NCBI GenBank assembly: GCA_963716565.1
Contig: OY970318.1
Coordinates: 192,830 to 256,829 of the forward strand
Direction: 5' to 3'
Source of the DNA: an uncultured Candidatus Saccharibacteria bacterium
GTDB lineage: Bacteria; Patescibacteriota; Saccharimonadia; Saccharimonadales; CAIOMD01
DNA length: 64,000 nt
The stretch's first letter is position 1. Every line of letters starts with the position of its first letter. Shown in pieces: positions 6,153 through 63,881 of this stretch. The notes beneath the pieces were generated by a model. The model did not search any database. It saw only the letters and a list, made by a program, of their open reading frames with translations, and was not told the origin of the DNA. The position numbers and the translations under genes are program-made.

Positions 6153-6218
6153 ACCCGGTAAACAAGAATTTGTATGAAGTCCCGCCAGTCGGGGGCTTCG
6201 CCATTTTATGGGCATTTC

Positions 6219-7208: not shown

Positions 7209-7356
7209 AGTCCCTTTCCTCCTCGCATTGTTTTCGCCCACAGGGGCGAGACTACTTCTCAACTGATGAAAAGCTAGCAATATAATAACATATAATGGCA
7301 AAATAGGCAATTGTACATATAATCTGTTTTTGCTATACTCTAGCTGTTCATCACGA

Positions 7357-7440
7357 GCGCGAGTGGTGGAATGGTAGACACGCTAGCCTTAGGAGCTAGT
7401 GCCGCAAGGCGTGAAGGTTCAAGTCCTTTCTCGCGCACCA
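7357..7440 (+). tRNA. tRNA-Leu (anticodon TAG), CCA encoded
   Basis: The acceptor pairs gcgcgag/ctcgcgc. The anticodon arm is ctagc-cttagga-gctag. It has a long variable arm and the T-arm gaagg-ttcaagt-ccttt, and it ends in acca. Confidence 0.9.
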
Positions 7441-7448
7441 AACAAGAG

Positions 7449-7469
7449 CACCCATTTTGGGTGTTTTTG
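7449..7469 (+). terminator. Rho-independent terminator after tRNA-Leu
   Basis: The stem caccca/tgggtg is followed by a T5 run. Confidence 0.6.
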
Positions 7470-7493
7470 TTTGGTCTGTGTGGCAGACTTAAG

Positions 7494-7596
7494 CCTTCAC
7501 GGCGACAGCTTTAGCTGGCGCGGAGTGAAGGTGCATAGAGCGATTAGCGGCAATAGTCGGGCGCGTAGCCCCGACGCTGTCCTTTCTCGCGCACCA
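7494..7596 (+). other. tRNA-Leu 3'-end echo: T-stem and acceptor 3' strand plus CCA, with the T-loop replaced by a 47-nt conserved GC hairpin module
   Basis: gtgaaggt (7525-7532) equals tRNA positions 7411-7418. tcctttctcgcgcacca (7580-7596) equals 7424-7440. The insert at 7533-7579 shares about 37 of about 40 aligned nt with 57875-57920. ccttcac (7494-7500) is complementary to gtgaagg (7525-7531). Confidence 0.6.
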
Positions 7597-7604
7597 AAAT
7601 TATT

Positions 7605-11422: not shown

Positions 11423-12709
11423 ATGCAAACTACTATTAAAGAATCTTCCGACACCACTGCCGTTTTAACCGTTACGGCTAACGCCGAAGATTTGGCTAAA
11501 TACAAATCATTAGTTGTTAAACGGTTGGCCAAAGATGTAAAAGTGCCCGGTTTTAGGACTGGCAAAGTACCCCAAGCCGTAGCCGAAAAGAACTTAGACC
11601 CTAACTATGTGCAAAGCCAAGTAATAGAAGAGGCTATAAACCGCCTGTATTTGAATGCTCTTAATGAGACTAAATTAAGAGTTATCTCGAACCCTAAAAT
11701 TGCCGTTACTAAGTTTGTGCCTTATACCGATTTAGTCTTTACGGCCGAAGTCGATGTAGTACCTAAAATTAAATTGCCCGATTACAAGAATATTAAGGTT
11801 AAAAAAGAAGAAGTTGCTATTACCGACGCCGATGTAGAAGAAGTTTTAGGCCGGATTCAGCAGCAACAGGCTACATTTACCGAAGTTACCCGGGCCGCCA
11901 GAGATGGCGACAGGGCCATAATTGATTTTGCTGGCAAAGATGCCAAGGGCGAGCCAATTCCTAACGGTTCAGGCAAGGATTACCCTCTAGTTTTAGGCAG
12001 TAAAAGCTTTATTGCCGGTTTTGAAGAGCAAGTTGTTGGCCTTAAAAAAGGCGCCAAGAAGAGATTTACGTTGAGTTTTCCTAAAGATTATTTTGCCCAA
12101 GTTCTAGCCGGCCAAAAAGTAACTTTTGATATAGAAGTAAAAAAGATTGAAGAATCTAAGGCAGAAGAATTAAATGATGCTCTTGCGGCCAAAATTGGCC
12201 CATTCAAAACTGTTGGTGACTTAAGGGCCGATATCAGAAAACAGCTAAACATTGAGCGCGAGCATCATGCCAACCGCGCCTTTGAAGAAGCCGTTATTAA
12301 GGCCATCGCCGACAAAGTAAAAATTGCTTTGCCCGAAGGCTTGCTAGCCGAACAGACCAAAATGATAGATCAAGAATTCCGCCAGAACCTATCCCGCCAA
12401 AACCAAACCTTTGAAGATTACTTAAAGAGTACTGGCAAAACCGAAGACGAATATAAAGAGCAAGAATTAAAGCCACTGGCCCAAGAGCGCCTTAAAGCTG
12501 GTTTAGTACTGGCCGAAATCGCTAAAGCCGAAGATATCACAGTCACGCCCGAAGAACTGCAAATAAGGGTACAGCTTATAAAGAATCAGTATAAAGACGA
12601 GAAGGTTCACGAAGAATTAGACAAGCCCGAGAACCAGCAAGATATTGCCAGTCGCATGGTTACCGAAAAAACCATCACCAAATTAGTAGGTTACGCCCAA
12701 GGAAAATAG
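11423..12709 (+). CDS. tig: Trigger factor
   Basis: 428 aa. It has an N-terminal ribosome-binding region (PGFRTGKVP), a central FKBP-type PPIase segment and a helical C-terminal arm. Confidence 0.92.
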   Translation: MQTTIKESSDTTAVLTVTANAEDLAKYKSLVVKRLAKDVKVPGFRTGKVPQAVAEKNLDPNYVQSQVIEEAINRLYLNALNETKLRVISNPKIAVTKFVPYTDLVFTAEVDVVPKIKLPDYKNIKVKKEEVAITDADVEEVLGRIQQQQATFTEVTRAARDGDRAIIDFAGKDAKGEPIPNGSGKDYPLVLGSKSFIAGFEEQVVGLKKGAKKRFTLSFPKDYFAQVLAGQKVTFDIEVKKIEESKAEELNDALAAKIGPFKTVGDLRADIRKQLNIEREHHANRAFEEAVIKAIADKVKIALPEGLLAEQTKMIDQEFRQNLSRQNQTFEDYLKSTGKTEDEYKEQELKPLAQERLKAGLVLAEIAKAEDITVTPEELQIRVQLIKNQYKDEKVHEELDKPENQQDIASRMVTEKTITKLVGYAQGK

Positions 12710-12710
12710 G

Positions 12711-13100
12711 GTGTCGTTTAGAACCATAAGCCACTACGAGGGTGCGGTGCGGATTGCTCCTAGTGATTGTGAATCATGTGACTTTAGAATGCCGGACAAA
12801 GACGATGATTCAAGCTGTAAGCACGAAGCCGATTTATGTATTGCCACAAGGGTTTGGTACGACGAGCTAACAGAAAGGCATGGAATGGCTACGGCAATGG
12901 GTAGTTTTTGTTTAAGATTGTGTAGCGGATTTAAAGCTAGATACGAGCAACGTTCTTTGGTAGCGGCTACATATACAGAATCTCTTTGCCGTAAGAAAAA
13001 TGATGCAATTATTCTACGAAAATCAAATGTTAGTAGAACCACTATATTGCCTACACCACCTCTGCAGCAAGGGGAATATAGCCTCGACAAGATAGAATAG
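12711..13100 (+). CDS. Possible Cys-rich hypothetical protein (very uncertain; equally long ORF on the opposite strand)
   Basis: GTG lies 2 nt after the tig stop. The 129-aa product has 9 Cys (CESC...C...C). ORF 12734..13090 (-) covers the same DNA, so coding strand and coding status are unresolved. Confidence 0.25.
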   Translation: MSFRTISHYEGAVRIAPSDCESCDFRMPDKDDDSSCKHEADLCIATRVWYDELTERHGMATAMGSFCLRLCSGFKARYEQRSLVAATYTESLCRKKNDAIILRKSNVSRTTILPTPPLQQGEYSLDKIE

Positions 13101-13193
13101 GCATGTTATAACAAATATGCTATTTGGAGTGTCCAAGGAGCATGTAACTCCCTGTAGAGTGTTAGTCAAAAGTCGAGACAGACGGAGGCAGCA

Positions 13194-13643
13194 ATGGATT
13201 CTAAAGACCAGATAGGCGATGGACTGCCCAGCGGCTTGTCTATCGAGAACCCAGACGTGAGTGGCGTGCCAACGTTGGCAGAAGGCATGGAAAAGTGCGG
13301 CATCTGTTGCCGAGATATGAAAGAAGGCGAAGTCCTTCACCACGGTGAGTACAATGGCCAGTGGGTCAACGCTTGTGATGACTGTGAGCCCGCCCTAGAC
13401 AAGACATGTCACTTGTGTGGCAACGGTTTGTATTTGGGCAAGGCGTTGGTCTGGACCGAAGGAGGTGAGCTTACGCACGTTTGTCATCCGTGTTTGAACA
13501 TCAAGACGGAACAGCTTCGGTGCTACAGCTGTAGAGGGTCATTCGATATGCAGCCGGTGCTCAACTATCCCACCCCGGATGACAAAAGGCTGGCCAGAGG
13601 TCTCTGTACCGACTGTGCCGACAAGCTCGGCGACAAGAACTGA
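13194..13643 (+). CDS. Cys-rich protein with six CxxC pairs (three predicted zinc ribbons)
   Basis: GGAGG lies 6 nt before the ATG. The 149-aa product has 13 Cys arranged as CGIC(C)...CDDC, CHLC...CHPC and CYSC...CTDC. TGTTATAAC (extended -10-like) sits about 80 nt upstream. Confidence 0.6.
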   Translation: MDSKDQIGDGLPSGLSIENPDVSGVPTLAEGMEKCGICCRDMKEGEVLHHGEYNGQWVNACDDCEPALDKTCHLCGNGLYLGKALVWTEGGELTHVCHPCLNIKTEQLRCYSCRGSFDMQPVLNYPTPDDKRLARGLCTDCADKLGDKN

Positions 13644-13771
13644 CCACAGGGGGTTTGGGAGGGCTTCGCAGCCCTCCCAATAACCTCTGAGCTAATTAAA
13701 TGTAGTTATCTCAGAAGTTGTAAATTTATTACTTTGCCTTGGTTATTAAGCTTTAATAGTCAGGGTAAAGA

Positions 13772-13786
13772 GCCATAGAAAGTGCC
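13772..13786. repeat. Left copy of a perfect 15-bp inverted repeat (gccatagaaagtgcc)
   Basis: It is the exact reverse complement of 14441-14455. The pair brackets gene 13859..14338. Confidence 0.7.
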
Positions 13787-13790
13787 ACTA

Positions 13791-13825
13791 GGGCCGCCAG
13801 CGCATATAGCACTGGCGGCCCTTTT
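13791..13825 (+). terminator. Rho-independent terminator (plus strand)
   Basis: A 10-bp stem gggccgccag / ctggcggccc is followed by tttt. Confidence 0.5.
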
Positions 13826-13858
13826 GGTTGTTTGTGATGCCCCAAGCTGTCGGACGGG

Positions 13859-14338
13859 TCAGCTGGCCAAGAATGGACAGCTTTGCCGATCACCGATGAT
13901 AGATGCCGACAGCAGCTCACAATGGCCGTCGTCGTACACCTCAACGACTATTGCCTCCACGATGGTGATGCTGCTTGTGGTGAGGTCCTCCAGCTCGACG
14001 CCGATGTAGACGATGCGCGCCCACAAGTCGGAAACGTAGGCCCTAAGGTCTCGAGCTGCGGCCGAAGCGTTATTGTACGCTCGCTTGGCAATCTGACGCT
14101 GGAAGGTGCAGGATCTGCACAGTCCGTGGTCGGCTTTGCCCATGTTGGAACACCTTGCGGTGATCTCGCGGTACTCGATCTCGGCGTTGCGCGCCAGGCT
14201 CTGTTTCTGCGCCCAGTTCATCAGCAGGGCAAAGCCCTTCCTTGTGCAAAAGACGCGATCGAACAACGACCCAATCAGCCGTGCTCTCTCGAACCGAAGT
14301 GCAGCCGCAGACCTATCTGAATGGTTGGCTTGGAACAT
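13859..14338 (-). CDS. Hypothetical protein (high GC), flanked by a 15-bp inverted repeat
   Basis: I trimmed track ORF 13859..14392 to the ATG at 14338, which is preceded by GGGAGAG. A long leader carries a 15-nt IR hairpin. The product contains a C..(9)..C..C cluster (ARCSNMGKADHGLCRSC). No family was recognised. Confidence 0.5.
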   Translation of the reverse strand: MFQANHSDRSAAALRFERARLIGSLFDRVFCTRKGFALLMNWAQKQSLARNAEIEYREITARCSNMGKADHGLCRSCTFQRQIAKRAYNNASAAARDLRAYVSDLWARIVYIGVELEDLTTSSITIVEAIVVEVYDDGHCELLSASIIGDRQSCPFLAS

Positions 14339-14371
14339 GTGCTTGCTCTCCCTCTGGTAGTGTTTGTGGTT

Positions 14372-14422
14372 TCCCCTAAGGGAAGCTAACAACTTTAAAA
14401 GCGGTCAGCTTTCCTTAGGGGA
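14372..14422 (-). promoter_or_regulatory. Leader hairpin / candidate operator: 15-nt inverted repeat with 1 mismatch and a 21-nt spacer
   Basis: tcccctaagggaagc (14372-14386) pairs with gctttccttagggga (14408-14422). It lies about 35 nt upstream of the ATG at 14338 on the minus strand. Confidence 0.4.
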
Positions 14423-14440
14423 TCTAACAGGAAAGAACAA

Positions 14441-14455
14441 GGCACTTTCTATGGC
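14441..14455. repeat. Right copy of the perfect 15-bp inverted repeat (ggcactttctatggc)
   Basis: It is the exact reverse complement of 13772-13786. Confidence 0.7.
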
Positions 14456-14628
14456 TAGTTGTAAATACAAAGGGCCGGGTTTTGCCCCAGCACCTCCGCT
14501 ATCCTAAGGTAATTACTACCTCGAATTAGTGCTATATTAACATAATAATACAAATAAAGCAATTATAAAGTGCTCATGCTTGCAAAAATGGGTTTACATA
14601 AACATACTATCCACAATAAGGAGTTAAA

Positions 14629-14814
14629 ATGGCAGAAACTAGCGTATCCGGCCTACTAGCAAATCGGGAAAGCAAACTTACCATGGCAGCAGCCATACGT
14701 TTAGGTTGCGGAGCGTGTGAGGCTGTATCACCAAGTTGTAGGCCCAAACTTACCGAAACGGTAGTGCATGGCAATGTCATAAAGGAAAAGCGGCTGTTTC
14801 TAACGAGCAGGTAA
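14629..14814 (+). CDS. Small hypothetical protein with a GCGAC..SPSC motif (possibly the 5' part of a frameshifted gene)
   Basis: AAGGAG lies 6 nt before the ATG. A TTGCAA/CATACT promoter-like pair sits upstream (14580-14608). The next frame is open from 14742, so 14629-15167 may be one gene. Confidence 0.35.
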   Translation: MAETSVSGLLANRESKLTMAAAIRLGCGACEAVSPSCRPKLTETVVHGNVIKEKRLFLTSR

Positions 14815-14864
14815 TAGAAACTGCGGCCATAAACTGCGAACTAGTATACGAATTAGCCCAAGCG

Positions 14865-15167
14865 ATGCCATCTACGCCAGAGGAATTCAAAGCAATTACC
14901 GATAAGGTAATAATCAATATGCCTCCACCATCTACCGAGCGGGTTGATACTTCCATGAATATTGACCCAACTTTGTCGCCCCCCAAAAAAGACGAATGGC
15001 CTTGGAACTTCCAGCCAAAGAGTGCGCAAGAGTTAGAAGCAACAGAAAGTACCGTTGCCAGTGGATTAATTGACCTTACTAGGCCAGATATCGGACCAAG
15101 ACACCCTTGGGATCGAATGGCGGAGAGTGTTGCTCAGACCAAGAGAAGAGAAATAATCGCTGAGTAA
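14865..15167 (+). CDS. Hypothetical protein (its frame is open upstream to 14742; possibly the 3' part of 14629..)
   Basis: Track ORF of 100 aa. By my codon walk the same frame has no stop back to 14742 and reads plausibly (AAVSNEQVIETAAINCELVYELAQA). Confidence 0.35.
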   Translation: MPSTPEEFKAITDKVIINMPPPSTERVDTSMNIDPTLSPPKKDEWPWNFQPKSAQELEATESTVASGLIDLTRPDIGPRHPWDRMAESVAQTKRREIIAE

Positions 15168-15299
15168 TCCAGCAAAATCATAATATTGCCGTTAAGGCAC
15201 AAAAGTGGTAAGGTAGCGACAACATACAAAACCCTAAGCTACACGCTAAGGGTTAGGTAATGTGACTGTTCTTTCACTCATATACGCAGGGGGTGTCGG

Positions 15300-15731
15300 T
15301 TGAACGAGCACAAGCAGGCTAAGACGATTCAAGAAGGAGCGTGGCTTGCCGCTGAAGCATGGCGCCAAAAGATCGAGCTACTGCAGGATCCCACGGTGGA
15401 TACCTACAATGAGTTCGTTCGGCGTTGTTCGCAAGTTGCCGGTGATCTGTGTGGGCTTTGCTATGCGGCAGCTCACATACTAAAGGTAGACCCACCGGGC
15501 AATCGCAAGCGGTGCAAGGTTTGTCCGCTACAGCCTAAATGGCACAAGGTTTGCTCGCTGTGGTTACAGAGGCACTATTGCCACCCGGCAGTAGAGAAGT
15601 TCGTTGGTATCTGCCAGGGTATACACAAAGCCAACCAAGGCGACGACCAAGTGCGGTGGGCTCTAGGCCGGCAAGAGCTGTTAAGGCATGCCATGCAAGC
15701 CAAGGCGGCTATCGAAGCCATCCTGCAGTAG
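15300..15731 (+). CDS. Cys-rich hypothetical protein (8 Cys)
   Basis: A TTG start is preceded by GGGGGTG. The 143-aa product carries C-x8-C-x2-C and C-x2-C clusters. The segment is high GC. Confidence 0.45.
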   Translation: MNEHKQAKTIQEGAWLAAEAWRQKIELLQDPTVDTYNEFVRRCSQVAGDLCGLCYAAAHILKVDPPGNRKRCKVCPLQPKWHKVCSLWLQRHYCHPAVEKFVGICQGIHKANQGDDQVRWALGRQELLRHAMQAKAAIEAILQ

Positions 15732-15890
15732 AGTAAAGAGCGTGCCTTCGCGTGAGGCGCCCAAGTTTGTTGTAAAACAGGGGCGCCCACTCGGAGGCGC
15801 TTCTGTTTTAAAGTGTAAAATACTTTATTTATCGTAGTTATTATGGTTTAGTGTTATTGCGTTGAAAATCCCTACCCGTTTGGAGGCAGT

Positions 15891-16319
15891 GTGGATTGCA
15901 AGGCGTTTGCAACCGAGGTGGTAAAGAGGAAGAAAGAGCTTGCGGGCTTGATGCGCGGGCACAGCAAGAACCAGGCGGCGATATGGCTTCAGGTTCGCAA
16001 GGTGCTCCAGGAGCTCGGCGAGGTATACCCAGAGGCCGTCCAGGCGGATTCGTATCGGCATATGGCCGAGCGAGGGTACTGGATGTTGCGCTTTGACACT
16101 CACGGTAACGAACAGCTGATGGTCGATCTGACCACTGGTGACATAGCCGTGATGGGTGCTCTCGAGAAAGACTGGCCAGACTTCATCATCGGGCTGGGCC
16201 CAGACGACCTCAATGCCGGCAAGGAGCTGGAAATCCAGCGGAAGTTGCTTGCCGACTATAAGGGTTGTGCGGCCACCAAGCCCAAGGGCGACGGCCGCCG
16301 GCTTACTACGGCGAGGTAA
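15891..16319 (+). CDS. Hypothetical protein
   Basis: A GTG start lies 4 nt after GGAGG (15882-15886). The double-hairpin terminator at 16352-16414 follows in the same orientation. The antisense ORF 15825..16331 lacks an SD. Confidence 0.5.
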   Translation: MDCKAFATEVVKRKKELAGLMRGHSKNQAAIWLQVRKVLQELGEVYPEAVQADSYRHMAERGYWMLRFDTHGNEQLMVDLTTGDIAVMGALEKDWPDFIIGLGPDDLNAGKELEIQRKLLADYKGCAATKPKGDGRRLTTAR

Positions 16320-16351
16320 GGCTCGCAACACTGGTGCAGACGCTTCAACGT

Positions 16352-16414
16352 GGGGGGCGGGGCTTTAATAGCCCGCCCCCATAGCAGCAGACCCCTAACG
16401 GGTCTTTTTCTTTT
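16352..16414 (+). terminator. Double-hairpin terminator T1 (conserved GC hairpin plus a U-tailed hairpin)
   Basis: The sequence ggggcggggctttaatagcccgcccc is followed by gaccc-ctaac-gggtc-ttttt. The 26-nt first hairpin differs at 1 nt from the one at 18155-18180. Confidence 0.65.
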
Positions 16415-16491
16415 ATAAGCCTTTATTAAATACTACAAATATGTTATTATATGGCCTCCTACGAGAGACTAAACACCCTTGGAGGTGCACC

Positions 16492-17541
16492 TTGCTACCT
16501 ATAAAACTACCTGTAGAAGTCATTATATTGCCTACCGTTCAATGCCATCGTGGCTGTGCTTTCTGCGGAATGGATTCAACCTGTAAAGGTATCCACATGC
16601 GAAAGACATGGATTCCGATGGTCATCGAACAGATCGTCGAGCTCGGCGATGTTTGTAAGAGTGTCTTTGTATCTGGACTCGGGGAGCCACTAGAATATCC
16701 GTGGCTACTTGAACTGATGCAGGGGCTCCTACAAACACAAGCCGGCAACATCTCGTTTATGACGTCCGGCTGTAAGAACCAGAAGGAGATAGGCTACGAC
16801 AACCTTGTCGCCCTGTCACAGCTTCGCGATCCCAGGGTTAACCCCACAATCAGCATTAGCAACGTTCACCCGTGGGTATCCATACAGAGGATGCGCTTTA
16901 GCGTACCGTTCCTTGAGCAGATATCCACGCAGATCAACGTCAAGCTGATCGACGGGAAATACCCAAGGAAGCCAACAAGGCTAGCAATCGCTGCTTTGCT
17001 GTACTGGTCGCTATGCAAGCTGGGCTATAGCGAATACTTGCCGAAAGAAGAGATGGCTAAGTTGCCCGAAGAGCACCAAAAGCGACTGAAGTCGGAGATG
17101 CAAAGGCAAGGCCTCTTGCTCAAGAACGCCAGGATCGAGGCCGACGAAGACGGATTCGCAATCTATCCTAGCCACCTGATGACTTACATGGTCAGGAGCA
17201 TGATCAGGGTTGGAAGGGCCATAGACTATTTGGACCTTCCTCGAGAAGGCGGGACGTTTGGTAAGAATCCGATTTGTTCTGTTTTTGATGGAAGCTGTGA
17301 GCATCGCTTGCTGTACATCCATGCGGACGGCCGGATCTTCCCCTGCGACTGCGTAGGCTGGGACGACAAGATGTCCCTAGGCCACATCAGTGACATATCT
17401 CTTAAGGAAGCACTCGAACTTCGAGAGCCTCTTTTAGAGAAGGCCTTCGGCAACTACATCGCTAGCCCTGCGATTCTGCCCGACAGATTCAGGTGTACTC
17501 GGTGCTGTACGCAGTGGCCCGAGAAGCAGTACAACATATGA
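16492..17541 (+). CDS. Radical SAM enzyme with a SPASM/twitch-type C-terminal Cys domain (peptide/protein-modifying maturase family)
   Basis: I trimmed the ORF to TTG 16492, which lies 6 nt after GGAGG. It has CHRGCAFC (CxxxCxxC) near the N-terminus, a GLGEPL (GGEP-like) motif and a C-terminal C-x10-G-x4-C (CEHRLLYIHADGRIFPC) followed by CTRCC. Confidence 0.75.
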   Translation: MLPIKLPVEVIILPTVQCHRGCAFCGMDSTCKGIHMRKTWIPMVIEQIVELGDVCKSVFVSGLGEPLEYPWLLELMQGLLQTQAGNISFMTSGCKNQKEIGYDNLVALSQLRDPRVNPTISISNVHPWVSIQRMRFSVPFLEQISTQINVKLIDGKYPRKPTRLAIAALLYWSLCKLGYSEYLPKEEMAKLPEEHQKRLKSEMQRQGLLLKNARIEADEDGFAIYPSHLMTYMVRSMIRVGRAIDYLDLPREGGTFGKNPICSVFDGSCEHRLLYIHADGRIFPCDCVGWDDKMSLGHISDISLKEALELREPLLEKAFGNYIASPAILPDRFRCTRCCTQWPEKQYNI

Positions 17542-17626
17542 AGCAAGGTGCTTACGGCCCCCGAAAGCTCGAAAGAGCTCGACGGGGCCGTTTGCCATTT
17601 TATGGGTAAATTTATTGGGCACAGAA

Positions 17627-17654
17627 TTGAATAAAGCGGATATTCTGTTATAAT
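17627..17654 (+). promoter_or_regulatory. Near-consensus sigma70-type promoter with extended -10
   Basis: TTGAAT (17627-17632), a 16-nt spacer ending in TGT, and TATAAT (17649-17654). It lies 37 nt upstream of the ATG at 17691. Confidence 0.5.
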
Positions 17655-17690
17655 ATGCGTAATCTGACAAGATCGAACGCGGAGGTTGTT

Positions 17691-18128
17691 ATGTTCTGGG
17701 GTTGGCGTAAGGTACAAGACCTTGAAGGGCTTGTGCGAGCGGCAAAGAAGAAGGGCGTAACTCTCATCACGGTGCAGGCTGGCTTGGAGTCGCCGGGAGG
17801 GGACGATAACCCCGCAGATCCGTGTGAGGTTCCAGGCGAGTATCGCATCTTCTTGGTGTACTCTCTTGGGTACAAGAAGAGGTGGAAGTTGTACAACGAA
17901 CACATCTTCACCTTCTTCGTGGACGACGAGGCAAATTTCAGCTGCGATGAGTGCCAGCAGTGGAGCATCAAGGCCTTGATGACTGTTAAGGCGCGAGTAG
18001 ATGAGCTCAGCCGTCAGCTGCCGGGAGTCGACATCGAGTTCTGGTACGAGGATGAGCCGGTGACTCCAGAGCTAGTCAAAGAGATGTGCCTCGAGGCCGA
18101 ACGGCTTGAGGTGGTAGCCGACGCCTGA
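17691..18128 (+). CDS. Hypothetical protein
   Basis: I trimmed track ORF 17655..18128 to the ATG at 17691, which lies 6 nt after GGAGG. Terminator T2 follows. Two antisense track ORFs overlap it and are judged spurious. Confidence 0.5.
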   Translation: MFWGWRKVQDLEGLVRAAKKKGVTLITVQAGLESPGGDDNPADPCEVPGEYRIFLVYSLGYKKRWKLYNEHIFTFFVDDEANFSCDECQQWSIKALMTVKARVDELSRQLPGVDIEFWYEDEPVTPELVKEMCLEAERLEVVADA

Positions 18129-18151
18129 CGGCTAAGGATCTGTCAGATCAT

Positions 18152-18209
18152 GGAGGGGCGGGGCTTTAATAGCCTGCCCCTCCGACCGAAGACCTACAAG
18201 GTCTTTTTT
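18152..18209 (+). terminator. Double-hairpin terminator T2 (paralog of T1)
   Basis: The sequence ggaggggcggggctttaatagcctgcccctcc is followed by agacc-tacaa-ggtct-ttttt. Confidence 0.65.
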
Positions 18210-18241
18210 GTTTGTTCAAAGACAAGATGAATAAAAGCTTA

Positions 18242-18275
18242 TAAAAAATCCCGCTTATCGTAGTAGCTAGCGGGA
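18242..18275 (-). terminator. Rho-independent terminator for the minus-strand gene 18323..18697
   Basis: The stem tcccgc/gcggga is followed by a T-run on the minus strand (plus-strand A-run at 18243-18248). Confidence 0.55.
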
Positions 18276-18322
18276 ACGCCGGGTTTGCACCGGAGCGAGT
18301 AATCCTCGCTGGTTGGGGGGCT

Positions 18323-18697
18323 CTAGGCCGGCTGCGGCGGCAGCCATACGGCGTGCTTGCGCAAGCTGATGTCGAAGGCTATATCGCTGTCGTCGCCGCA
18401 GAGTCTGCGGATATGCCAGGCGAAGGCCTCAGACCACTGCTTGAACCGCTTCTTCCTCTTGCGGGTGTGGTGGCCGATCACAGTGATGACCATGTTGTTC
18501 GACAACGAGTCGAGCTTACCGGCCTTCTTGTAGGTCACGGTGACATGGTTGGGATCGAGCAACTCGCCACAGTGCTCTAGAAGCGCCGAATACAGCTGTT
18601 GCTGGATCTTTGGCGTGAGCCACGGGCTGCCGTCATCTGCGTACAGCATCCTTGTGTTCTCCGGGGTGTCCCTGTAAACCACAACGGCCTCGGGCAC
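18323..18697 (-). CDS. Hypothetical protein; speculative tautomerase-superfamily-like (Pro at position 2, two beta-alpha-beta-like halves)
   Basis: I trimmed track ORF 18323..18784 to the in-frame GTG at 18697, which lies 6 nt after GGGAGG. TGTTAAATT (extended -10-like) lies upstream on the minus strand. The fold guess rests only on sequence pattern. Confidence 0.45.
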   Translation of the reverse strand: MPEAVVVYRDTPENTRMLYADDGSPWLTPKIQQQLYSALLEHCGELLDPNHVTVTYKKAGKLDSLSNNMVITVIGHHTRKRKKRFKQWSEAFAWHIRRLCGDDSDIAFDISLRKHAVWLPPQPA

Positions 18698-18896
18698 GAA
18701 GCACCTCCCTGTATAGTCCTCGGCATAACCGAGGTTTTGCCGAAAAACAGAGCATAATTTAACATAAAAAAAGCTAATTAGCAAGACTAAGCAAAGCCAA
18801 TATCTGATGTTGTGTCCTATAAGTTGTAAACCCTTATGCTTGCATTAGCGGTCTTTTATTAGTATGAATATTACATTGCAATAAAAGGAGTATTAT

Positions 18897-19709
18897 ATGG
18901 TCAAGGAGCCCGGTGGACCAAAAAATCCATACGAAGATTACTTTGCCTCAAAAAAAGAGATTACTACTAAAGCTATCGCATCGGGCATAGAAATCCCATC
19001 TGTATATTTAGAGTCAGACGATCCAGACTATTTTCTGGAATTAGACAGTAGTATAGACGAGTTAATGGATGACGATCTCGAAAGGGACGAGGCCTGCGAA
19101 TGCTTAGGTATACCTATCGCAGATATAGATGCGATGGACCTGGTTGAAACTCTAATATTTATAGATGAGTTATGGAAGCTAGATAACAAAGCTAAAGCCA
19201 AAGACGAAATGGAGCTATTGTTCGGCGCTATTTTGCTTTCAGCTAATCTTACAAGTGACGAAAAACTTAAGAGGTTGGCGTTTGTTAACGATTTGCTTAA
19301 AAGCACTGCTGGAGAAATAGAAATTACTCAAGAAAAAGTAGACGAGTTATGTAAAAAGGCCGAGACATCCAAGACTAATAGGATGGCTTTGATGCGTACG
19401 CCTAAAGAGTTAGAACTTTATTTATATAATTCTTTTTCAGAACGTGAGGATGAAGTTGATGATGATGCTATTTGTGAATTAGTAGAAGTTGCTTTAGAAA
19501 TGGTACTAATAAGGATGGCTCAGCAAAAACGCAAAGAGACTACGGGTAGCGATTCTACCGACCCAGACGCTGAGGAACAATACAAGGCCTACCTACAAGA
19601 GGCACAAAAACTTGCCGACTGCATAGGTATGGCCAAACCAGAATTTGAGCATTTTCTTGAAACTGTAGCAAACACCCTGGACAACTACGGATACACAACA
19701 GTTCTTTAA
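18897..19709 (+). CDS. Acidic hypothetical protein
   Basis: AAGGAG lies 7 nt before the ATG. A TTGCAT-17-TATGAA promoter-like pair sits at 18840-18868. The 270-aa product is rich in D and E. No family was recognised. Confidence 0.55.
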   Translation: MVKEPGGPKNPYEDYFASKKEITTKAIASGIEIPSVYLESDDPDYFLELDSSIDELMDDDLERDEACECLGIPIADIDAMDLVETLIFIDELWKLDNKAKAKDEMELLFGAILLSANLTSDEKLKRLAFVNDLLKSTAGEIEITQEKVDELCKKAETSKTNRMALMRTPKELELYLYNSFSEREDEVDDDAICELVEVALEMVLIRMAQQKRKETTGSDSTDPDAEEQYKAYLQEAQKLADCIGMAKPEFEHFLETVANTLDNYGYTTVL

Positions 19710-19807
19710 GCTGTCAGATCGCTACTATTTGCAATTTGTTGTGTTTGGCATCGATTTTTGCCTGAAGACTTTTGTTTCTCTGTTATTCGGTGTAGAATCA
19801 AAAAATT

Positions 19808-20140
19808 ATGAAGGCGTTGAGTTTAAAGCAGCCGTATGCGAGTTTGATTGCCGAAGGCATCAAAACTATCGAAACGCGCAAATGGGCTACAAAATATCGC
19901 GGTGACATCTTAATTTGTGCCTCTAAAAGCGGGCAAGGCGAGCCCAAAGGCGTAGCTTTGTGTATTGTGGAGCTTTACGACATCCGCCCCATGACAAAAG
20001 CCGACGAAGCAGCCGCCTGCATAGAACTCTACCCCAACGCCAAAGCCTGGCTTATCCGCAATTTGCGTGTTCTGCCCAAACCCTTCCCCGTAAAAGGCCA
20101 CCTCAGTTTATTTGATATAGACCTCCCAGGGTGTTGCTAG
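19808..20140 (+). CDS. ASCH domain protein (PUA-like fold)
   Basis: The N-terminus MKALSLKQPYASLIAEGIKTIETRKW..YRGDILI matches the usual ASCH pattern (alS.kqPwa.lI..G.KtiE.R.w...yrG..li). Confidence 0.6.
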   Translation: MKALSLKQPYASLIAEGIKTIETRKWATKYRGDILICASKSGQGEPKGVALCIVELYDIRPMTKADEAAACIELYPNAKAWLIRNLRVLPKPFPVKGHLSLFDIDLPGCC

Positions 20141-20203
20141 CCTTAATTCACGCATAAAAGTGGTATTATATTAGTAGCGATAAATAAACAAAAAAGAATA
20201 GCA

Positions 20204-20554
20204 ATGGATAAAAAAACGCTAGCAGGTATCGACCCTAATAGGCTTGTAATACAAGGCGGAGTTTATCAGGGGTGCGTACTGGAGCGAAGCCTGTCGCAGA
20301 TAGGCGCCGGCGCTGTAAATGACGCTATTGATTGTAAGCGTAAAGACCCCAACAGTGACATTATTCCGGAACGTGAAGGCGAAATAGCCATGGAAAAAGA
20401 AGTAACCAGAAGGGCAGCCGAAGCTAGCAAAGCTCTTTGCGCTGAAGATAGGGCATTCACGGCAGCGGGTGCCGGCTTTGACTTTACCTTAAACCGAATG
20501 ACAAACGAAAGAAAAGGCATAGAACAACAAGAGCGCCCTGCTACACACAAGTAG
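20204..20554 (+). CDS. Hypothetical protein
   Basis: 116-aa ORF. TGGTATTAT (extended -10) lies upstream. No SD is present. Confidence 0.4.
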   Translation: MDKKTLAGIDPNRLVIQGGVYQGCVLERSLSQIGAGAVNDAIDCKRKDPNSDIIPEREGEIAMEKEVTRRAAEASKALCAEDRAFTAAGAGFDFTLNRMTNERKGIEQQERPATHK

Positions 20555-20644
20555 CATGTATGGCACATAAATTACGGTGTGAACTGCTTGTGCTTGCATT
20601 GCTAAAATGACGTAATTGTTATTAAGTATATTATAATCTCTGTT

Positions 20645-22027
20645 ATGTATGAGTGGCAGGATGGAATAACCAAAAAACTTAATCGGTTAGAGGCAGAGTA
20701 CGATGCTCAATTACTTAGAGAAGCCTTTGCTGAAAAAGAGCGACAGTTGCCCGATAGGCTGGCACAGATACAAAGGCAAAACTTTGAAGAATTAACGGCC
20801 GATGAGATAGCCGAAAGATTAGGTATGCCTACTGAGCAGGTAAAAACTACCACTAAAGCGCTTGGTGTGAGATTCATAATCAAAAAAGAAGGTCTAATGA
20901 CCTTTAGCGTTCTACCTGAGTTTACACTTGATTTGCTGATTGATGAACAAAGACGCATGGAGGGGGCGGACGGTGTAGACTGCGCAGAGTCTGTAGAAGA
21001 GCAGGTACCGCCGATAGTAACCGAGGTGCTGGTGCCAGACGATGAACCAGAATGGCAAGGAGTTTATGACTCACTAGAGGAACATATAACCATAGACAAA
21101 ATGTGGAAAGTTGTTGGCAAATCAAGGGGGTGGGTAGAAAGACGAATTGAAGCTTTGGGTATAACACCCGCTATACACCAAACCAGAACGGGGCATCCAG
21201 ATAACCCTTTGTATGCTAAAGAGGTGGCTTTATTTCTAAAAAGAGAAGCTGATGCTAATCCATTAGATAATGGTTGGGTAAATTTACGGCAGCTAGAACA
21301 GATTACTGGGCAAGACCGCGAGTGGATAGCAAATCGTTTACAAGAAGCAAATATCGTCCCAGAATCGAGATGCTCTAGCCTTAGTGGGCATACTTTAGAT
21401 TTTTATCCGCCAGAATCAGCAGAGCTTATTCAAAATGCTGCCGATGAACGACCAGAATTAGCTGCTGATTGGCTTACAGAAGAAGGATTAACAAATGGGC
21501 TGCAAAAATCACTAGCCTGGGTTCGCAACAGGCTCGCACAATACAAAGCTTTGGCCGAAGATAGGCGAGATGAACACGGTGTTACGCGCGTACACTATCC
21601 TCCGCATGTATTCGCCGAACTAGAACAAGTAAAAAATTTTGAACAATCACTTCCTGATGCCGGTGATTATTTAACTTTTTATAATTTAGTATCGGCTATT
21701 GGCAGGTCAGCCCTGTTAGTTGCTAACCGCATAGAAGAATTGGGCATAAAACATGAGTTAAGACGTGGTGGCAGAAACAGGATAACCCCACATTTCCCCC
21801 CAGAGAGCGTTGGTGATATTAAGGGTCTGATAGAAAAACAAGAGTCAAGCGATTTAATTACAACAACGCAGATAGCAGTTAAAACCAAAAAAACTATCGC
21901 CGATGTACGTCAAAGATTAAAAGAACTAGGCATAGAAGCGGTAGAAATAAAAAGAGCCGGCAACGGCTCGTTTAAAGAACACTACTCGCCAGATTGTATT
22001 GAGTTACTTCTTGCAGAAAAAGATTAG
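20645..22027 (+). CDS. Protein with six tandem excisionase/MerR-type (HTH_17-like) winged-helix repeats
   Basis: 460 aa. The repeats fall at aa 50-98, 148-198, 212-262, 277-326, 343-393 and 405-455, and each reads like [LIV]T...[LI]......s...[VI]..R[LI]..LGI........G.....[YF].P[EH]....L. TATAAT at 20632-20637 lies 8 nt before the ATG (leaderless-like). Confidence 0.65.
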   Translation: MYEWQDGITKKLNRLEAEYDAQLLREAFAEKERQLPDRLAQIQRQNFEELTADEIAERLGMPTEQVKTTTKALGVRFIIKKEGLMTFSVLPEFTLDLLIDEQRRMEGADGVDCAESVEEQVPPIVTEVLVPDDEPEWQGVYDSLEEHITIDKMWKVVGKSRGWVERRIEALGITPAIHQTRTGHPDNPLYAKEVALFLKREADANPLDNGWVNLRQLEQITGQDREWIANRLQEANIVPESRCSSLSGHTLDFYPPESAELIQNAADERPELAADWLTEEGLTNGLQKSLAWVRNRLAQYKALAEDRRDEHGVTRVHYPPHVFAELEQVKNFEQSLPDAGDYLTFYNLVSAIGRSALLVANRIEELGIKHELRRGGRNRITPHFPPESVGDIKGLIEKQESSDLITTTQIAVKTKKTIADVRQRLKELGIEAVEIKRAGNGSFKEHYSPDCIELLLAEKD

Positions 22028-22079
22028 TAATAGCTGGCACTCGTTGTTGCCAAGTGCCAATTTATGATAAACTAAAGTT

Positions 22080-22679
22080 ATGAAAAGTTTCTTAGTTCCC
22101 ACAGTTATCGAAAGCGATGGCCGCGGAGAGCGCGCTTATGATATTTATAGCCGGCTACTTAAAAGTCGCATTATCTTTTTAGGCGAAGAAGTTAACCACC
22201 ACACTGCTAACTTAATAGTGGCCCAAATGTTGTTTTTGGAGTCCGAAGACCCTAAGGCCGACATCACTCTTTATATAAATAGTCCGGGAGGTAGTGTTAA
22301 TGATGGCTTGGCCATTTACGACACCATGCAATTTGTGAAGTGCGATGTTCAGACTATTGGTATTGGATTACAAGCCAGCATGGGCGCCTTTTTACTGAGT
22401 AGCGGCACCAAAGGTAAACGCTTTGTTCTGCCCAACAGCAAGGTGTTAATTCACCAACCATCTAGCGGAATGAAGGGTGTAGTTACCGATATGGAAATCA
22501 CCCTAAAAGAAGTGCTTGATTTAAAGAAGCGACTTAACGAGATATTAGCTAAAAACACCTGCCAGAAGCTAGCTAAAATAGAAGCAGACGTAGAGCGTGA
22601 TTTTTGGATGACCGCCGACGAAGCCGTAAAATACGGCCTAGTCGACGAAGTCATTGGCGCCAAAGTAACCAAAAAATAA
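22080..22679 (+). CDS. clpP: ATP-dependent Clp protease proteolytic subunit
   Basis: 199 aa. It reads VPTVIE...[18 protein letters not shown] and has Ser-His-Asp triad contexts ([13 protein letters not shown]). Confidence 0.93.
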
Positions 22680-22748: not shown

Positions 22749-23102
22749 TTATGGGAGCGGGTTGACTTCGTGTAGCGCCACGGTAATGCTCCAGCTCTTC
22801 CAGACGTTGGTGAAGGCGCCAGAGTGCGTCTCGGCCGATGCCCATCTGAAACCGGCCTGCTCGATTGCCTTTGTAGCGGCGCTCTGCAAGAGCCCATTCA
22901 AGCCAGTCCGAGACATCATTAGATCAATTCTCCGCCTGGCTCTGGAGGGAACCCTGTAGTCAACCCTGGCATACCCTCTGCCACCGTTATTGTAGTACCG
23001 GATGGCAGTGCTGAGAGCCTGTCGGAACATGTCCTCGAAACGCATGTATTCGAGGATCATCTTCTTATTCTGCTCACGGGCTTCCTGATCGACAGCTATC
23101 AC
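22749..23102 (-). CDS. Hypothetical protein on a high-GC single-gene cassette
   Basis: The GTG start at 23102 lies 7 nt after GGTGG. TGTTATACT (extended -10) is on the minus strand at 23142-23150. Terminator hairpins lie downstream. No family was recognised. Confidence 0.5.
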   Translation of the reverse strand: MIAVDQEAREQNKKMILEYMRFEDMFRQALSTAIRYYNNGGRGYARVDYRVPSRARRRIDLMMSRTGLNGLLQSAATKAIEQAGFRWASAETHSGAFTNVWKSWSITVALHEVNPLP

Positions 23103-23394: not shown

Positions 23395-26300
23395 ATGGCT
23401 CAAACTAAAGCTCCAGCAAAAGACAGCGTCACCACAAAAAAAGACAGGGTATATTTTACAAAAAGCGAAGGAATAGAGCTCCCCAACCTAGTAGACCACC
23501 AAAATAAGAGTTTTGGTTGGTTTGTTAATGAAGGGCTTGGTGAATTATTAGCCGAAATTAATCCAATAGATGATTACACCGGCACCAAACTAACCCTAAA
23601 TTTTAAGAATTATCATTTTGAAGAACCCAAAACTTCAGAAGCCGAAGCCCGTGAAAACAACATTAGCTACGAAGCCCCGCTAAAGGCCTTAGTAGAACTA
23701 ACCAACAAGGTAACCGGCGAAGTTAAGGAACAAGAAATTTACTTAGGCGACTACCCCTGGATGACCACTAGGGGCACTTTTGTAATTAATGGCGCCGAGC
23801 GCGTGGTAGTTAGCCAGTTAATCCGTAGCCCAGGCGTCTTTTTTAAAGCCACTCAACACGGTGGCACCAACCTGTATGGAGCCAAGGTTATTCCTAACCG
23901 AGGAGCTTGGTTAGAATTCGAAACCGCTGCTAATGGAGCCATGTATGTAAAAATAGACCGACGTCGTAAAATCCCAATCACCACCTTGCTAAAAGCTTTG
24001 GGCATGGGCGAAACGTGCTATTAAAGAAGCTGTAAAGCATGTAGATAGCGGCAAACTAAATTACATCGATGCTACGTTAGAAAAAGATCCTTCTAAAGGT
24101 ACTGGCGAAGCTTTAATTGAAGTTTACCGCCGTTTGCGCCCAGGAGACTTAGCTACTGTAGATAACGCCCGTAGCTTGCTAGAAAACATGTTCTACAACT
24201 ACAAGCGTTTTGACTTTAGCCGAGTTGGCCGCTACAAAATGAACAAGCGCTTGGATATGGATATTCCAAATACTGCCGAAAACCGCGTATTGCGCCTAGA
24301 AGACCTTATTGCCATCGTAGCCGAAATTATTCGTTTGAATAACACCCAAGAACCCGATGACGACATCGATAGCCTAGCTAACCGCCGCGTTAAATTGGTA
24401 GGCGAATTAGTACAAAGGCAGTTCCGTATTGGTTTATTGCGTATGGAACGCAACGCCAAAGATCGCATGAGCATGTGCGAAATCGAAACCGTTACACCTG
24501 GCCAGCTTATTAATGCTCGCCCAGTTGTAGCTGCTGTTCGTGAATTCTTTGCCTCGTCTCAGCTAAGCCAGTTTATGGACCAAATTAACCCGCTAAGCGA
24601 ATTAGCTCACAAGCGTCGCTTAAGTTCTATGGGCCCTGGTGGCTTAAGCCGCGAACGGGCTGGTTTTGAAGTACGTGACGCTCACGCTACTCACTATGGC
24701 CGTATTTGCGTGGTAGAAACTCCCGAAGGTGCCAACATTGGTTTGGTACTTAACATGGCTAGTTTTGCCCGTATTAACGAATACGGTTTTATTGAAACTC
24801 CATATAAAAGGGTTATTAATGCCTTGCCAGCCAAGAAGGCTGTTGGCCACATTGCCGGTGTTGATTTAGAAGATGCCAAGGGTAAGACAATTGTTAAAAA
24901 GGGTCAAAAAATTACTGCTGAGCAGGCTAAAAAGCTAGAGGCCATAAAAGAAAAAGCTACTTGGCCAGTTAAGTCCCAAGTTACTAGCGAAATTGTTTAT
25001 TTAGACGCTAGCGAAGAAGAAAAAGCAGTTATTGCCGGAGCCGGTAACGAAACCGACAAAGACGGCTTATTTTGTACATCCCAGAGTATCTGCTCGTAGC
25101 AATATGACTGCCGGTGAAGTTGACCCGCAAGAAGTCACTTATATTGATGCCGATACCAAACAAATTGTTGGTACCAGCGCTGCTTTAATTCCATTTGTAG
25201 AAAAGAACTATGTATACCGAAGTTTGATGGGTAGTAACCAGCAACGCCAGGCTGTACCTTTAATTAATCCAGAAGCTCCAATTGTTGGTTCTGGTGTAGA
25301 AGGTGTAGCTGCCCGCAACACCGGCCAGGTTGTTTTGGCCGAAGGTAAGGGTAAAGTTGTTAAAGCTACTGCCGAAGAAATTGTTGTTGATTACGGCAAG
25401 GTACGAAAAAACCTACAAGCCAATGCACTTTGTGCGCAGCAACGAAGGCTCTTCGATTAATCAAAAAGTGGCCGTTAACAGCGGTGATACTGTAAAAGAA
25501 GGCGACATTCTAATAGAAGGTATGAGCGTACAGGGCGGCGAATTGGCGCTAGGTAAAGACCTGCTAGTAGCCTTTATGCCTTGGTGCGGTTACAACTTTG
25601 AAGACGCTATTATTATTAGCAACCGCTTAGTGCGCGATGACGTGTTCACCAGCATCCACATTGTGGATTACATGACCGAAGTACGCGAAACCAAGTTAGG
25701 GCCAGAAATTGTTACCAGTGATATTCCAAACGTTTCCGAAGAAGCTCTAAGACACTTAGACGAAGATGGTATTGTACGAATCGGTGCCGAAGTTCACCCT
25801 GGCGACATCTTGGTTGGCAAGATTACTCCTAAGGGCGAGCAAGAATTAAGCAGTGAAGAACGCTTGCTACGTGCTATTTTTGGCGAAAAAGCCAAAGAAG
25901 TCCGTGACACTTCGCAGCGTATGAGCAACGGCAAACATGGCAAGGTTGTGGGCGTAAAGATATTTAGCCGCGCCACTGGCCATGAACTTAAGGCCGGCGT
26001 TATCATGCAAATCCAGGTGTTTGTTGCCCAAATGCGCAAGATTGATGTTGGTGATAAGCTAGGTGGTCGCCATGGTAACAAGGGTGTAATTGCCCGTATT
26101 TTGCCACTAGAAGACATGCCATATACCGAAGACGGTACTCCAGTAGATATTGTTTTGAACCCACTAGGTGTACCAAGTCGTATGAACATTGGCCAGTTGT
26201 TTGAAACTCACTTAGGTATGGCCGCTAAGGCATTAGGCTTTAGAGTTGCTAGCCCGCCATTCAATGGTGTGCCAATTGAGACTATCAAAGACTTACTTAA

Positions 26301-26922
26301 AAAAGCCGGCCTAAACGAAGATGGCAAGCAACAGTTGTTTGATGGCCGGACTGGTGCTCCATTTAAAGACCGTACCACTGTTGGCTGTATGTATATGATT
26401 AAGCTAAACCACATGATTGCCGATAAAATCCACGCTCGTTCTACTGGGCCATACACCATGGTTACTCAGCAGCCATTGGGCGGTAAAGCTCAAAACGGTG
26501 GCCAAAGATTCGGCGAAATGGAAGTTTGGGCATTAGAAGCTTACGGTGCTGCTAACACCTTGCAAGAAATGCTAACTATTAAGTCCGACGATGTTTATGG
26601 CCGTGCCAAAGCTTACGAAGCTATCATAAAAGACACCGAAATTGTTGGGCCAAAAGTACCAGAAAGCTTTAACGTACTTGTTAAAGAGCTACAAGGTTTG
26701 TGCCTAAAAGTTGACCTAGTTGACCTAAGCAAAGGCAAGGCAATTGATGCCGAAGCCTTGCTAGAAACTAACATTAAAGACGAAGCAGCTCACGAAGCTG
26801 AAGTAGAAGCTCCACAATCACCTATTAACGACCTAGATATGTCTAAAGAAATCGATAACGACGAATTCTTAATTATGGATGAATCGGGCGAAGAGATTAC
26901 CGTAACCGAAGAAGCTACCTGA
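23395..26922 (+). CDS. rpoB: DNA-directed RNA polymerase beta subunit, reading frame broken about 3 times
   Basis: Track fragments 23395-24024, 24134-25099, 25032-25460 and 25330-26922 read as consecutive RpoB sequence. Frame changes fall near 24010-24030, 25060-25100 and 25390-25440. Confidence 0.9.
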
Positions 26923-26954
26923 AGCAGACAATAACGAAACGGAGGAAGAATAAG

Positions 26955-30756
<3,802 letters not shown>

Positions 30757-63747: not shown

Positions 63748-63881
63748 CACTTACTTTTCGGCCTTTTGGCCTCGTCAGAATGAACACACATTCATCTAAG
63801 TAAGTGACAAAACTAGAGAGATTGTAGCGCGACTGGGCTACGTTGCCGGGCATTCTTGCGCCCGGCAACGCCTTGCGGTAG

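Follow-up and report, generated by a model that had tools for sequence, protein, structure and literature searches.

T1 and T2 are two near-identical double-hairpin modules in a 64-kb stretch of chromosomal DNA (hereafter the window) from a member of the Saccharimonadales, in the candidate phyla radiation (CPR), whose genome comprises 799 kb. They lie in a lineage-specific island between tig and clpP, downstream of the orphan genes PF and PH, respectively, and each consists of a strong GC-rich stem-loop (hairpin 1) followed by a weaker U-tailed stem-loop (hairpin 2). As judged from the sequence and its predicted folds, T1 and T2 are probably RNA 3′-end modules, in which a tandem intrinsic terminator would form the transcript end and the strong stem-loop would block exonucleases, the whole being reused among gene cassettes. 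This reading is based on the pattern of changes between the two copies, on their position after unrelated genes and on the recurrence of the same design elsewhere in the window and in relatives. The coordinates of the main features are collected in Table 1.

Sequence and fold of T1 and T2

The core of both modules is the 26-mer GGGGCGGGGCTTTAATAGCCYGCCCC, present on the plus strand at 16354-16379 in T1 (Y = C) and at 18155-18180 in T2 (Y = T). These were the only two matches in the window when up to three mismatches were allowed on both strands, and none of 100 shuffled sequences gave any match, bearing out the claim of an earlier note on this DNA that a 26-nt hairpin repeated with one difference is far beyond chance in 64 kb. 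The lone substitution converts a G-C pair of stem 1 into G-U, which pairs in RNA but not in DNA. The base of the stem, outside the 26-mer, is formed by one G-C pair in T1 and by A-U, G-C and G-C pairs in T2, thus differing between the copies yet being complementary in each of them. Hairpin 1 is located 33 nt (T1) and 23 nt (T2) from the stop codon, within the approximately 80 nt used to define tandem terminators, and no T-run or U-tract was found 3′ of it on either strand in T1 or T2. The possibility of hairpin 1 being a bidirectional terminator was rejected, as there is no T-run on the minus strand.

A terminator scan marked both second hairpins together with their T-runs (16389-16405 and 18188-18206), in agreement with the previous description of a U-tailed hairpin after each copy, and the corresponding U-trails, TTTTCTTTTA and TTTGTTTGTT, hold more than three U in 10 nt, as set for canonical trails. 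The spacer between hairpins 1 and 2, for which 8-10 nt had been reported, is of 8 nt in T1, as stated, but of about 4 nt in T2, in both cases well below the 50 nt allowed between tandem hairpins. The second hairpins had also been described as different in sequence, but they are in fact homologous: the stem AGACC/GGTCT is common to both and lies in each case 35 nt from where the 26-mer begins, and apart from one extra C-G pair in T1 they differ in loop and spacer alone. Over its full 55 nt, the module could be aligned in register between T1 and T2 at 73%, and nothing beyond the module aligned. Divergence is very uneven: 1 of 26 positions is changed in hairpin 1, against roughly every second one in the remainder of the module.

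A paralogous origin of PF and PH was rejected (BLASTP E = 20); single-sequence AlphaFold models of the two proteins, with predicted local distance difference test scores (pLDDT) of 48 and 42, were too poor for comparison. As PF and PH are unrelated, gene duplication does not account for the T1/T2 repeat. The two modules bracket the radical S-adenosylmethionine (rSAM) gene PG (16492-17541) and the gene at 17691-18128 (PH), exactly as the earlier note had it, but they do not close consecutive units, since PG, lying between them, has its own and different terminator (17554-17591).

Searches for the motif were carried out with the 20-nt core and a degenerate 26-nt version against 185,579 GTDB species genomes, JGI metagenomes and IMG/VR. 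These collections do not include the source genome, of which the results cover the 64-kb window. The three collections yielded no match except a degenerate one (L009), which falls inside an rsmD-like coding region and was rejected as due to chance. With a covariance model of hairpin 1, T1 and T2 remained the only copies in the window and 12 related loci gave none, and k-mer counts revealed neither enrichment of the hairpin arms as separate words nor half-sites in the window. In Rfam 15, no family reached its gathering score, and at E ≤ 10 chance-level matches alone overlapped T1/T2. The absence of homologues beyond the pair, named in the earlier note as one half of what would count against a separate role for hairpin 1, was therefore observed across the window, the related loci and the three collections. 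T1 and T2 are a sequence family not seen before, of a known kind, namely a tandem intrinsic terminator joined to a stem-loop similar to the repetitive extragenic palindromic (REP) elements.

Recurrence of the design in the window and in relatives

In the window, a 3′ hairpin of -23 to -33 kcal/mol stands behind nearly every open reading frame (ORF) with a high GC content at third codon positions (GC3). PI departs from this in having weaker hairpins alone, and hairpins of such strength are rare beside the core genes of the window.

Relatives were compared at their tig regions, in genomes whose trigger factor is 60-74% identical to that of the window. Near-identical hairpins were found after consecutive unrelated small ORFs in L011, L012 and L015/L016. 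In L011, a 48-nt hairpin conserved at 98% identity ends each of two adjacent cassettes (1900-3470), which have 113 nt of promoter, 5′ untranslated region (UTR) and first codons in common (79%) and unrelated coding bodies. These cassettes are inserted between a gene for a 265-aa protein and rsmD, and the syntenic spot of the window (compared region 5940-6255) holds a single related hairpin at 6176-6213. No common 5′ ends of the L011 kind were detected among the PF, PG and PH cassettes, where generic promoter words alone were found. In L012, a 28-nt hairpin follows, at 100% identity, a 413-aa gene and a HAD hydrolase gene, and it also follows tig in L010, a different species; the hairpin TTTCCAGGGTTAGACCCTGGAAA thus stands 3′ of three unrelated genes in two species (L010 and L012). 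A 36-nt hairpin is repeated at 100% identity in L015/L016. In both L015 and L012 the identity ends sharply at the hairpin edges, and one L015 copy has the layout of T1 and T2, with a GC hairpin of -26.7 kcal/mol and, 17 nt further on, a U-tailed hairpin of -10.3 kcal/mol. The repeated hairpins of the relatives were absent from the viral contigs searched.

For the Cys-rich PA (13194-13643), the homologue at the same locus in L010 has 31% amino-acid identity. When the two regions were compared (13085-13830 vs. 2296-2900), the non-coding ends were better conserved than the protein. The 5′UTR motif TAACTCCCTGT is conserved in L010, as is the 3′ double hairpin, in which stem 1 is GGGAGG/CCTCCC and stem 2 differs in sequence but pairs around a conserved apex, AATTAAATRTAGTT.

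Two further hairpin observations were made in these regions. A 39-nt hairpin with four G-U pairs at 13732-13770 carries an apex 10-mer, GCTTTAATAG, equal to that of hairpin 1 in T1 and T2, and in L011 a PaaX-like gene (3558-4106) lies between direct repeats of a 36-nt palindrome beginning with GTACAGTAGCTATGCTATAGCA (3505-3540 and 4098-4133).

A variant with a candidate hammerhead ribozyme

In three cases, one in the window and two in L015, a hammerhead stands in place of the U-tailed hairpin. In the window case, on the minus strand, the GC hairpin (63840-63871) comes after a high-GC gene truncated by the end of the window. The candidate ribozyme, 35 nt downstream, scored 34.6 bits against RF00008 (E = 8.8e-6), for which the gathering score is 48.5, and has a full-length core (CUGACGA...GAAA) with stems I-III. 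In L015, a 97-nt repeat with 82% identity (13285-13381 and 15208-15304) contains in both copies a GC hairpin and a type III hammerhead (42.6 and 25.4 bits), with compensatory changes in stems I and II between the two copies; the candidate ribozyme of the first copy is at 13320-13375. These repeats, also present in L016 at 4512-4608 and 6435-6531, stand on either side of several small membrane-protein ORFs arrayed between clpP and rpoB. For T1 and T2 themselves, the Rfam search found no ribozyme. As cleavage by the hammerhead would leave the GC hairpin near the new 3′ end, this layout is what one would expect of a hairpin that shields the mRNA from 3′ exonucleases.

A proposed RNA 3′-end module and its alternatives

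The suggestion in the earlier note that the conserved GC hairpin might act at the RNA level, as a stability element or a processing site, gains support from the G-U substitution, from the remaining changes being compensatory or unpaired and from other high-GC cassettes showing the same design. In the mechanism that we propose, RNA polymerase would terminate at the weak hairpin 2 and its U-tract, so that hairpin 1, with -24 to -26 kcal/mol and no U-tract, would stay on the transcript. Together, both hairpins would form a tandem 'U-shaped' terminator, insulating the next promoter in the case of T1 and the convergent gene in that of T2. Once the weak terminal hairpin had been trimmed, hairpin 1 would stop 3′-to-5′ exonucleases, as is expected of REP and retroregulator stem-loops. 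A module of about 60 nt would in this way close the transcription units of the unrelated orphans PF and PH, as part of a putative lineage design for high-GC3 orphan cassettes in which a strong GC hairpin after the stop codon is followed by either a U-tailed hairpin or a hammerhead ribozyme. That one hairpin is found after unrelated genes would be explained by variable arrays reusing their 3′ modules as cassettes are gained, and the module could have been copied either by insertion of a cassette beside a resident hairpin or by gene conversion. What was observed is the sequence with its folds and positions, the uniqueness of the motif and the recurrence of the design; termination, stabilisation and the mode of copying are what we infer from the sequence.

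Several points weigh against such a module. A U-tailed hairpin alone is normally enough for termination, the other island units carry different hairpins, and nothing requires the sequence of GGGGCGGGGCTTTAATAGCCYGCCCC itself. In addition, hairpin 1 is identical at 25 of 26 positions including its 5-7-nt loop, whereas changes have saturated the spacer and loop 2, and a conserved loop is not predicted by a purely structural role. The pattern may be a sign of sequence-specific recognition, of gene conversion or of hairpin 1 having spread separately at a later time. The covariation, finally, has no statistical weight at two copies, the observed score being reached by 226 of 500 shuffles.

Known classes of DNA site were also considered. 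The attC-like site put forward in the earlier note did not hold: attC cores (RYYYAAC/GTTRRRY) were absent within 80 nt of T1 and T2 and no such pair was found in 12500-22500, no Phage_integrase, other recombinase or transposase domain was detected in the island or in the other window ORFs scanned, the island genes have promoter-like stretches of their own, unlike the mostly promoterless cassettes of integrons, and their order is constant in the three assemblies that carry them. An attC site was rejected on these grounds. With respect to Xer/dif sites such as those of IMEX elements and pdif modules (28 bp, 11-6-11, with a conserved XerD arm), the 26-mer was judged by eye to be arranged as 10-6-10 with GC-only arms, and the dif consensus, also compared by eye and with no formal model, bears no resemblance to it. 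As regards REP elements, hairpin 1 is a GC-rich imperfect palindrome outside genes, within the 20-40 nt set for such elements, with two copies in the window and none in the 12 related loci; no transposase domain of the Y1 or REP-associated tyrosine transposase (RAYT) type was found among the window ORFs scanned, and the tetranucleotide flanking the hairpin is unconserved (GTGG in T1 vs. ATGG in T2).

We regard it as unlikely, although not negligible, that hairpin 1 is a site of DNA recombination or cassette capture, in which case the 1.8-kb segment with the rSAM gene and PH would have entered beside a resident hairpin, leaving attL/attR-like copies, by means of a site-specific or hairpin-recognising recombinase or through homologous exchange of end-sharing cassettes after natural transformation. 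T1 and T2 are indeed direct repeats enclosing this segment, their high identity is limited to a 26-bp imperfect palindrome with an AT-rich centre, and the 10-6-10 geometry is compatible with tyrosine-recombinase core sites. The tig-clpP interval is moreover a hot spot for variable genes, and the two L011 cassettes combine a common 5′ part and unrelated coding bodies with a common terminal hairpin that has a single counterpart in the window. As the comparison of L011 with the window and the sharp identity edges in L012 and L015 fit insertion beside a copied resident hairpin, a capture role was retained at this low level. The inserted cassettes of the relatives, each ending with a copy of the resident hairpin, also give indirect support to the cassette boundary of the earlier note in a looser sense, its attC form being rejected as above. 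Nevertheless, the absence of attC motifs and, among the window ORFs scanned, of recombinase domains, the restriction of the hairpin to 2 of about 8 island units and the record of PF, PG and PI on three contigs only, in constant order, speak against capture, as do a G-U change that keeps the RNA pairing and loses that of DNA and a homology that, contrary to a core-site model, reaches into hairpin 2. Slightly more doubtful is a broader version in which the Saccharimonadales would have a cassette system independent of integrons, with high-GC orphans captured beside GC hairpins that are duplicated at each insertion, T1 and T2 being the latest junction repeats, around the rSAM gene and PH. The hairpin would then be a target, as DNA or single-stranded DNA, of a recombinase or of transformation-driven exchange in addition to an RNA 3′-end protector, and a hammerhead or a U-tailed hairpin would set the transcript end.

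Equally doubtful is a dispersed REP-like palindrome, spread by a RAYT or gene-converted, that favours 3′UTRs and affects the mRNA only incidentally. The position of a GC-rich imperfect palindrome between stop codon and terminator after unrelated genes would fit such an element, and the presence of TTTCCAGGGTTAGACCCTGGAAA after three unrelated genes in two species is the behaviour of a dispersed one. Gene conversion is already an established proposal for the conservation of REP sequences (Higgins et al., 1988, according to the account in PMC4681348). In contrast, there are two copies in 64 kb without half-sites or enriched sub-motifs, no Y1/RAYT gene was found in the window, the flanking tetranucleotide differs, and the adjoining hairpin 2 was co-duplicated. 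That the modules are a functionless remnant of a local duplication of an ordinary terminator, their near-identity reflecting recency, appears improbable: it would suit a pair of copies with no homologue in the scanned collections or related loci, but not the very uneven divergence, the preservation of structure by the changes and the independent recurrence of the same architecture in relatives. Marginally less probable still is a sequence-specific RNA or DNA site for a regulator, perhaps island-encoded, co-regulating PF and PH. The loop and the bulge are fully conserved where adjoining unpaired bases have diverged, which would fit a binding site, but at two copies this may be due to recent copying or gene conversion; the scans of the high-GC island proteins yielded no domain for binding nucleic acids, and T2 has no downstream promoter to regulate.

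Comparison with known systems

T1 and T2 can be set beside known systems of several kinds. Tandem-hairpin terminators and hairpin clusters are a common and catalogued class (WebGeSTer DB, PMC3013805; Gupta and Pal, 2021, PMC8355165). T1 and T2 are similar to U-shaped tandem terminators in having two hairpins less than 50 nt apart and within 80 nt of the stop codon, the first of them 'I-shaped', without U-trail, and the second 'L-shaped', with a canonical U-trail. They differ in the near-verbatim reuse of hairpin 1 behind a second, unrelated gene and in its strength, which far exceeds that of the terminating hairpin (-24 to -26 vs. -8.5 to -8.8 kcal/mol). With enterobacterial REP elements, bacterial interspersed mosaic elements (BIMEs) and retroregulator stem-loops they have in common a GC-rich imperfect palindrome in the 3′UTR whose sequence is shared by unrelated transcripts and which would be expected to stop 3′-5′ exonucleases; unlike REP/BIME, the T1/T2 pair is alone in 64 kb, with no RAYT gene found in the window and no GTAG-type flanking tetranucleotide.

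Integron attC sites measure 57-141 nt, and those of super-integrons, such as the Vibrio cholerae repeats (VCRs), are homogeneous. The likeness of the island to such arrays lies in small orphan genes with an imperfect palindrome at each 3′ border, some of them near-identical, whereas the R″/R′ cores are missing here, no integrase was found, the element is 26-32 nt long, each island gene has its own promoter and terminator, and the hairpins mostly differ between units. Self-cleaving ribozymes are known between genes of variable arrays and are used as synthetic insulators; the sister modules at 63750-63871 and in L015 resemble these in holding a hammerhead where T1 and T2, which have no ribozyme, carry the U-tailed hairpin. 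Phage 'morons' and the minimal mobile elements of naturally competent bacteria are self-contained promoter-gene-terminator units of deviant GC content. The island units are likewise self-contained and of deviant GC, between the conserved tig and clpP, but neither homologues of their proteins in phages or plasmids nor replacement between strains were observed.

T1 and T2 alone are thus an ordinary kind of element, and the surrounding cassette pattern is the more useful lead: in these ultra-small Saccharimonadales genomes, high-GC orphan cassettes are found in variable regions near tig, clpP, rpoB and rsmD. If the 3′-end rule were true genome-wide, it would help to annotate transcript ends in CPR bacteria, supply portable 3′ parts to the genetic work that has recently become possible in Saccharibacteria, and serve as a marker of how these episymbionts acquire accessory genes.

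Genes around T1 and T2 and the tig-clpP island

The island separates tig (11423-12709) from clpP (22080-22679), an interval which in relatives contains 0-2 small ORFs or a trehalase gene, and in L012 at least five genes. Its core (13194-18697) includes seven genes with GC3 of 0.61-0.83 and a frameshifted gene, PC/PD, with 0.42, vs. 0.41-0.46 in housekeeping genes. An AT-rich promoter-like stretch is present 5′ of each island gene, and 3′ hairpins are also present between genes; in the scan, one site 5′ of PH, TTGAAT-16-TATAAT with a TG, scored 10/12. PF, PG and PI are on record on three contigs, the source genome and two Logan contigs from independent runs, with identical gene order and spacing in all three, and no presence/absence polymorphism appeared in the look-ups.

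PF matched itself alone among 1.84 billion representative proteins and PG itself alone among 5.8 billion proteins, and a homology search with PH among 1.8 to 5.8 billion proteins returned only the query. PF had no match in Pfam, PHROGs or PADLOC. PG gave weak Pfam matches to Radical_SAM and SPASM and, in PHROGs, a match to an Fe-S oxidoreductase family (E = 6.5e-5), where PI had a marginal match of unassigned function. None of the PADLOC models of defence systems was matched by the island proteins, and tblastn of ten concatenated island proteins against phage and plasmid collections gave no match.

Table 1. Location of the hairpin modules, neighbouring genes and related features in the window
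Feature	Coordinates	Strand	Description
T1 hairpin 1	16353..16380	+	Strong GC stem-loop with bulged G and UUAAU loop; -23.9 kcal/mol
T1 hairpin 2	16389..16416	+	AGACCC-CUAAC-GGGUCU (16389-16405) and U-tract; -8.8 kcal/mol; predicted canonical intrinsic terminator
17-nt tail TTTTATAAGCCTTTATT	16411..16427	+	Overlaps the T1 U-tract and runs into the rSAM promoter region
T2 hairpin 1	18152..18183	+	GC stem-loop as in T1 with one G-C changed to G-U; stem lengthened by GGA/UCC; -26.5 kcal/mol
T2 hairpin 2	18188..18216	+	GAAGACCU-ACA-AGGUCUUU (18188-18206) and U-tract; -8.5 kcal/mol; predicted canonical intrinsic terminator, facing the PI terminator
PF	15891..16319	+	142-aa orphan; GC3 0.74; GGAGG ribosome-binding site; predicted transcript end at T1
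PG	16492..17541	+	349-aa radical-SAM/SPASM orphan; TTG start; GGAGG ribosome-binding site; between T1 and T2
PG own terminator	17554..17603	+	Unrelated GC hairpin (17554-17591, -24.9 kcal/mol), then T-rich tail
PH	17691..18128	+	145-aa orphan; GC3 0.71; predicted transcript end at T2
PI terminator hairpin	18250..18274	-	Of the convergent orphan gene PI (18323-18697); followed by ATTTTTTATAAGCTTTTATT
tig-clpP island	12711..22027	.	Lineage-specific island, 9.3 kb, between tig and clpP
GC hairpin and type III hammerhead	63750..63871	-	Hairpin 63840-63871; candidate ribozyme 63750-63804, 35 nt downstream

Other observations in the window

A 17-nt sequence, TTTTATAAGCYTTTATT, lies directly 3′ of the T1 terminator on the plus strand and of the PI terminator on the minus strand, the inverted recurrence at 18230-18246 matching at 16 of 17 positions; it is a candidate for a terminator tail or junction sequence common to T1 and PI.

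High-GC ORFs occur at four places of the window: 6864-7310 (minus strand), 13194-18697, 22749-23102 (minus strand) and 63883-64000 (minus strand). Where measured, their GC3 is 0.58-0.83 vs. 0.32-0.49 in core genes, the truncated ORF at 63883-64000 being assigned by its GC content alone. Among those scanned, no Pfam domain was found save the weak rSAM/SPASM match, and nearly all have a strong GC 3′ hairpin. Within the island, the radical-SAM/SPASM enzyme PG is located amid the small Cys-rich orphans P0, PA, PE and PH (12747-18128), and a peptide-modification cluster is conceivable there.

A perfect 16-nt inverted repeat, AGCCATAGAAAGTGCC, is present at 13771-13786 and 14441-14456, where about 0.005 would be expected by chance in 6.4 kb. 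It encloses the minus-strand orphan PB (13859-14338) with its 3′ hairpin and a 25-bp 5′UTR hairpin (14372-14422), and could represent an invertible segment or terminal inverted repeats.

Compared with two Logan contigs, the window lacks 1 nt in a gene for a 179-aa protein (14629-15167), which is split as a result, and rpoB and rpoC (23395-30735) have at least three and at least five frame changes, respectively, compared to intact orthologues, with about 10 kb of upstream genes intact. The frame breaks in rpoBC and in 14629-15167 are likely due to erroneous indels in a long-read assembly, and their concentration in rpoBC is odd.

Finally, the exact 3′ ends of tRNA-Leu(TAG) and tRNA-Tyr(GTA) are repeated (20 nt and 16 nt) around 140-160 nt downstream of these genes (7423-7598 and 57766-57938). 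Both intervals have in common a 36-nt core, AGGTKCRTRKAGCGATTAGCG..AATAGTCGGGCGC (83%), and a GTCGGGCGC/CCCCGAC hairpin, and the repeated segments resemble the 3′ half of a tRNA with an insertion in the T-loop. Such segments could be what is left of the att sites of an integrative element, or else a small RNA resembling a tRNA.

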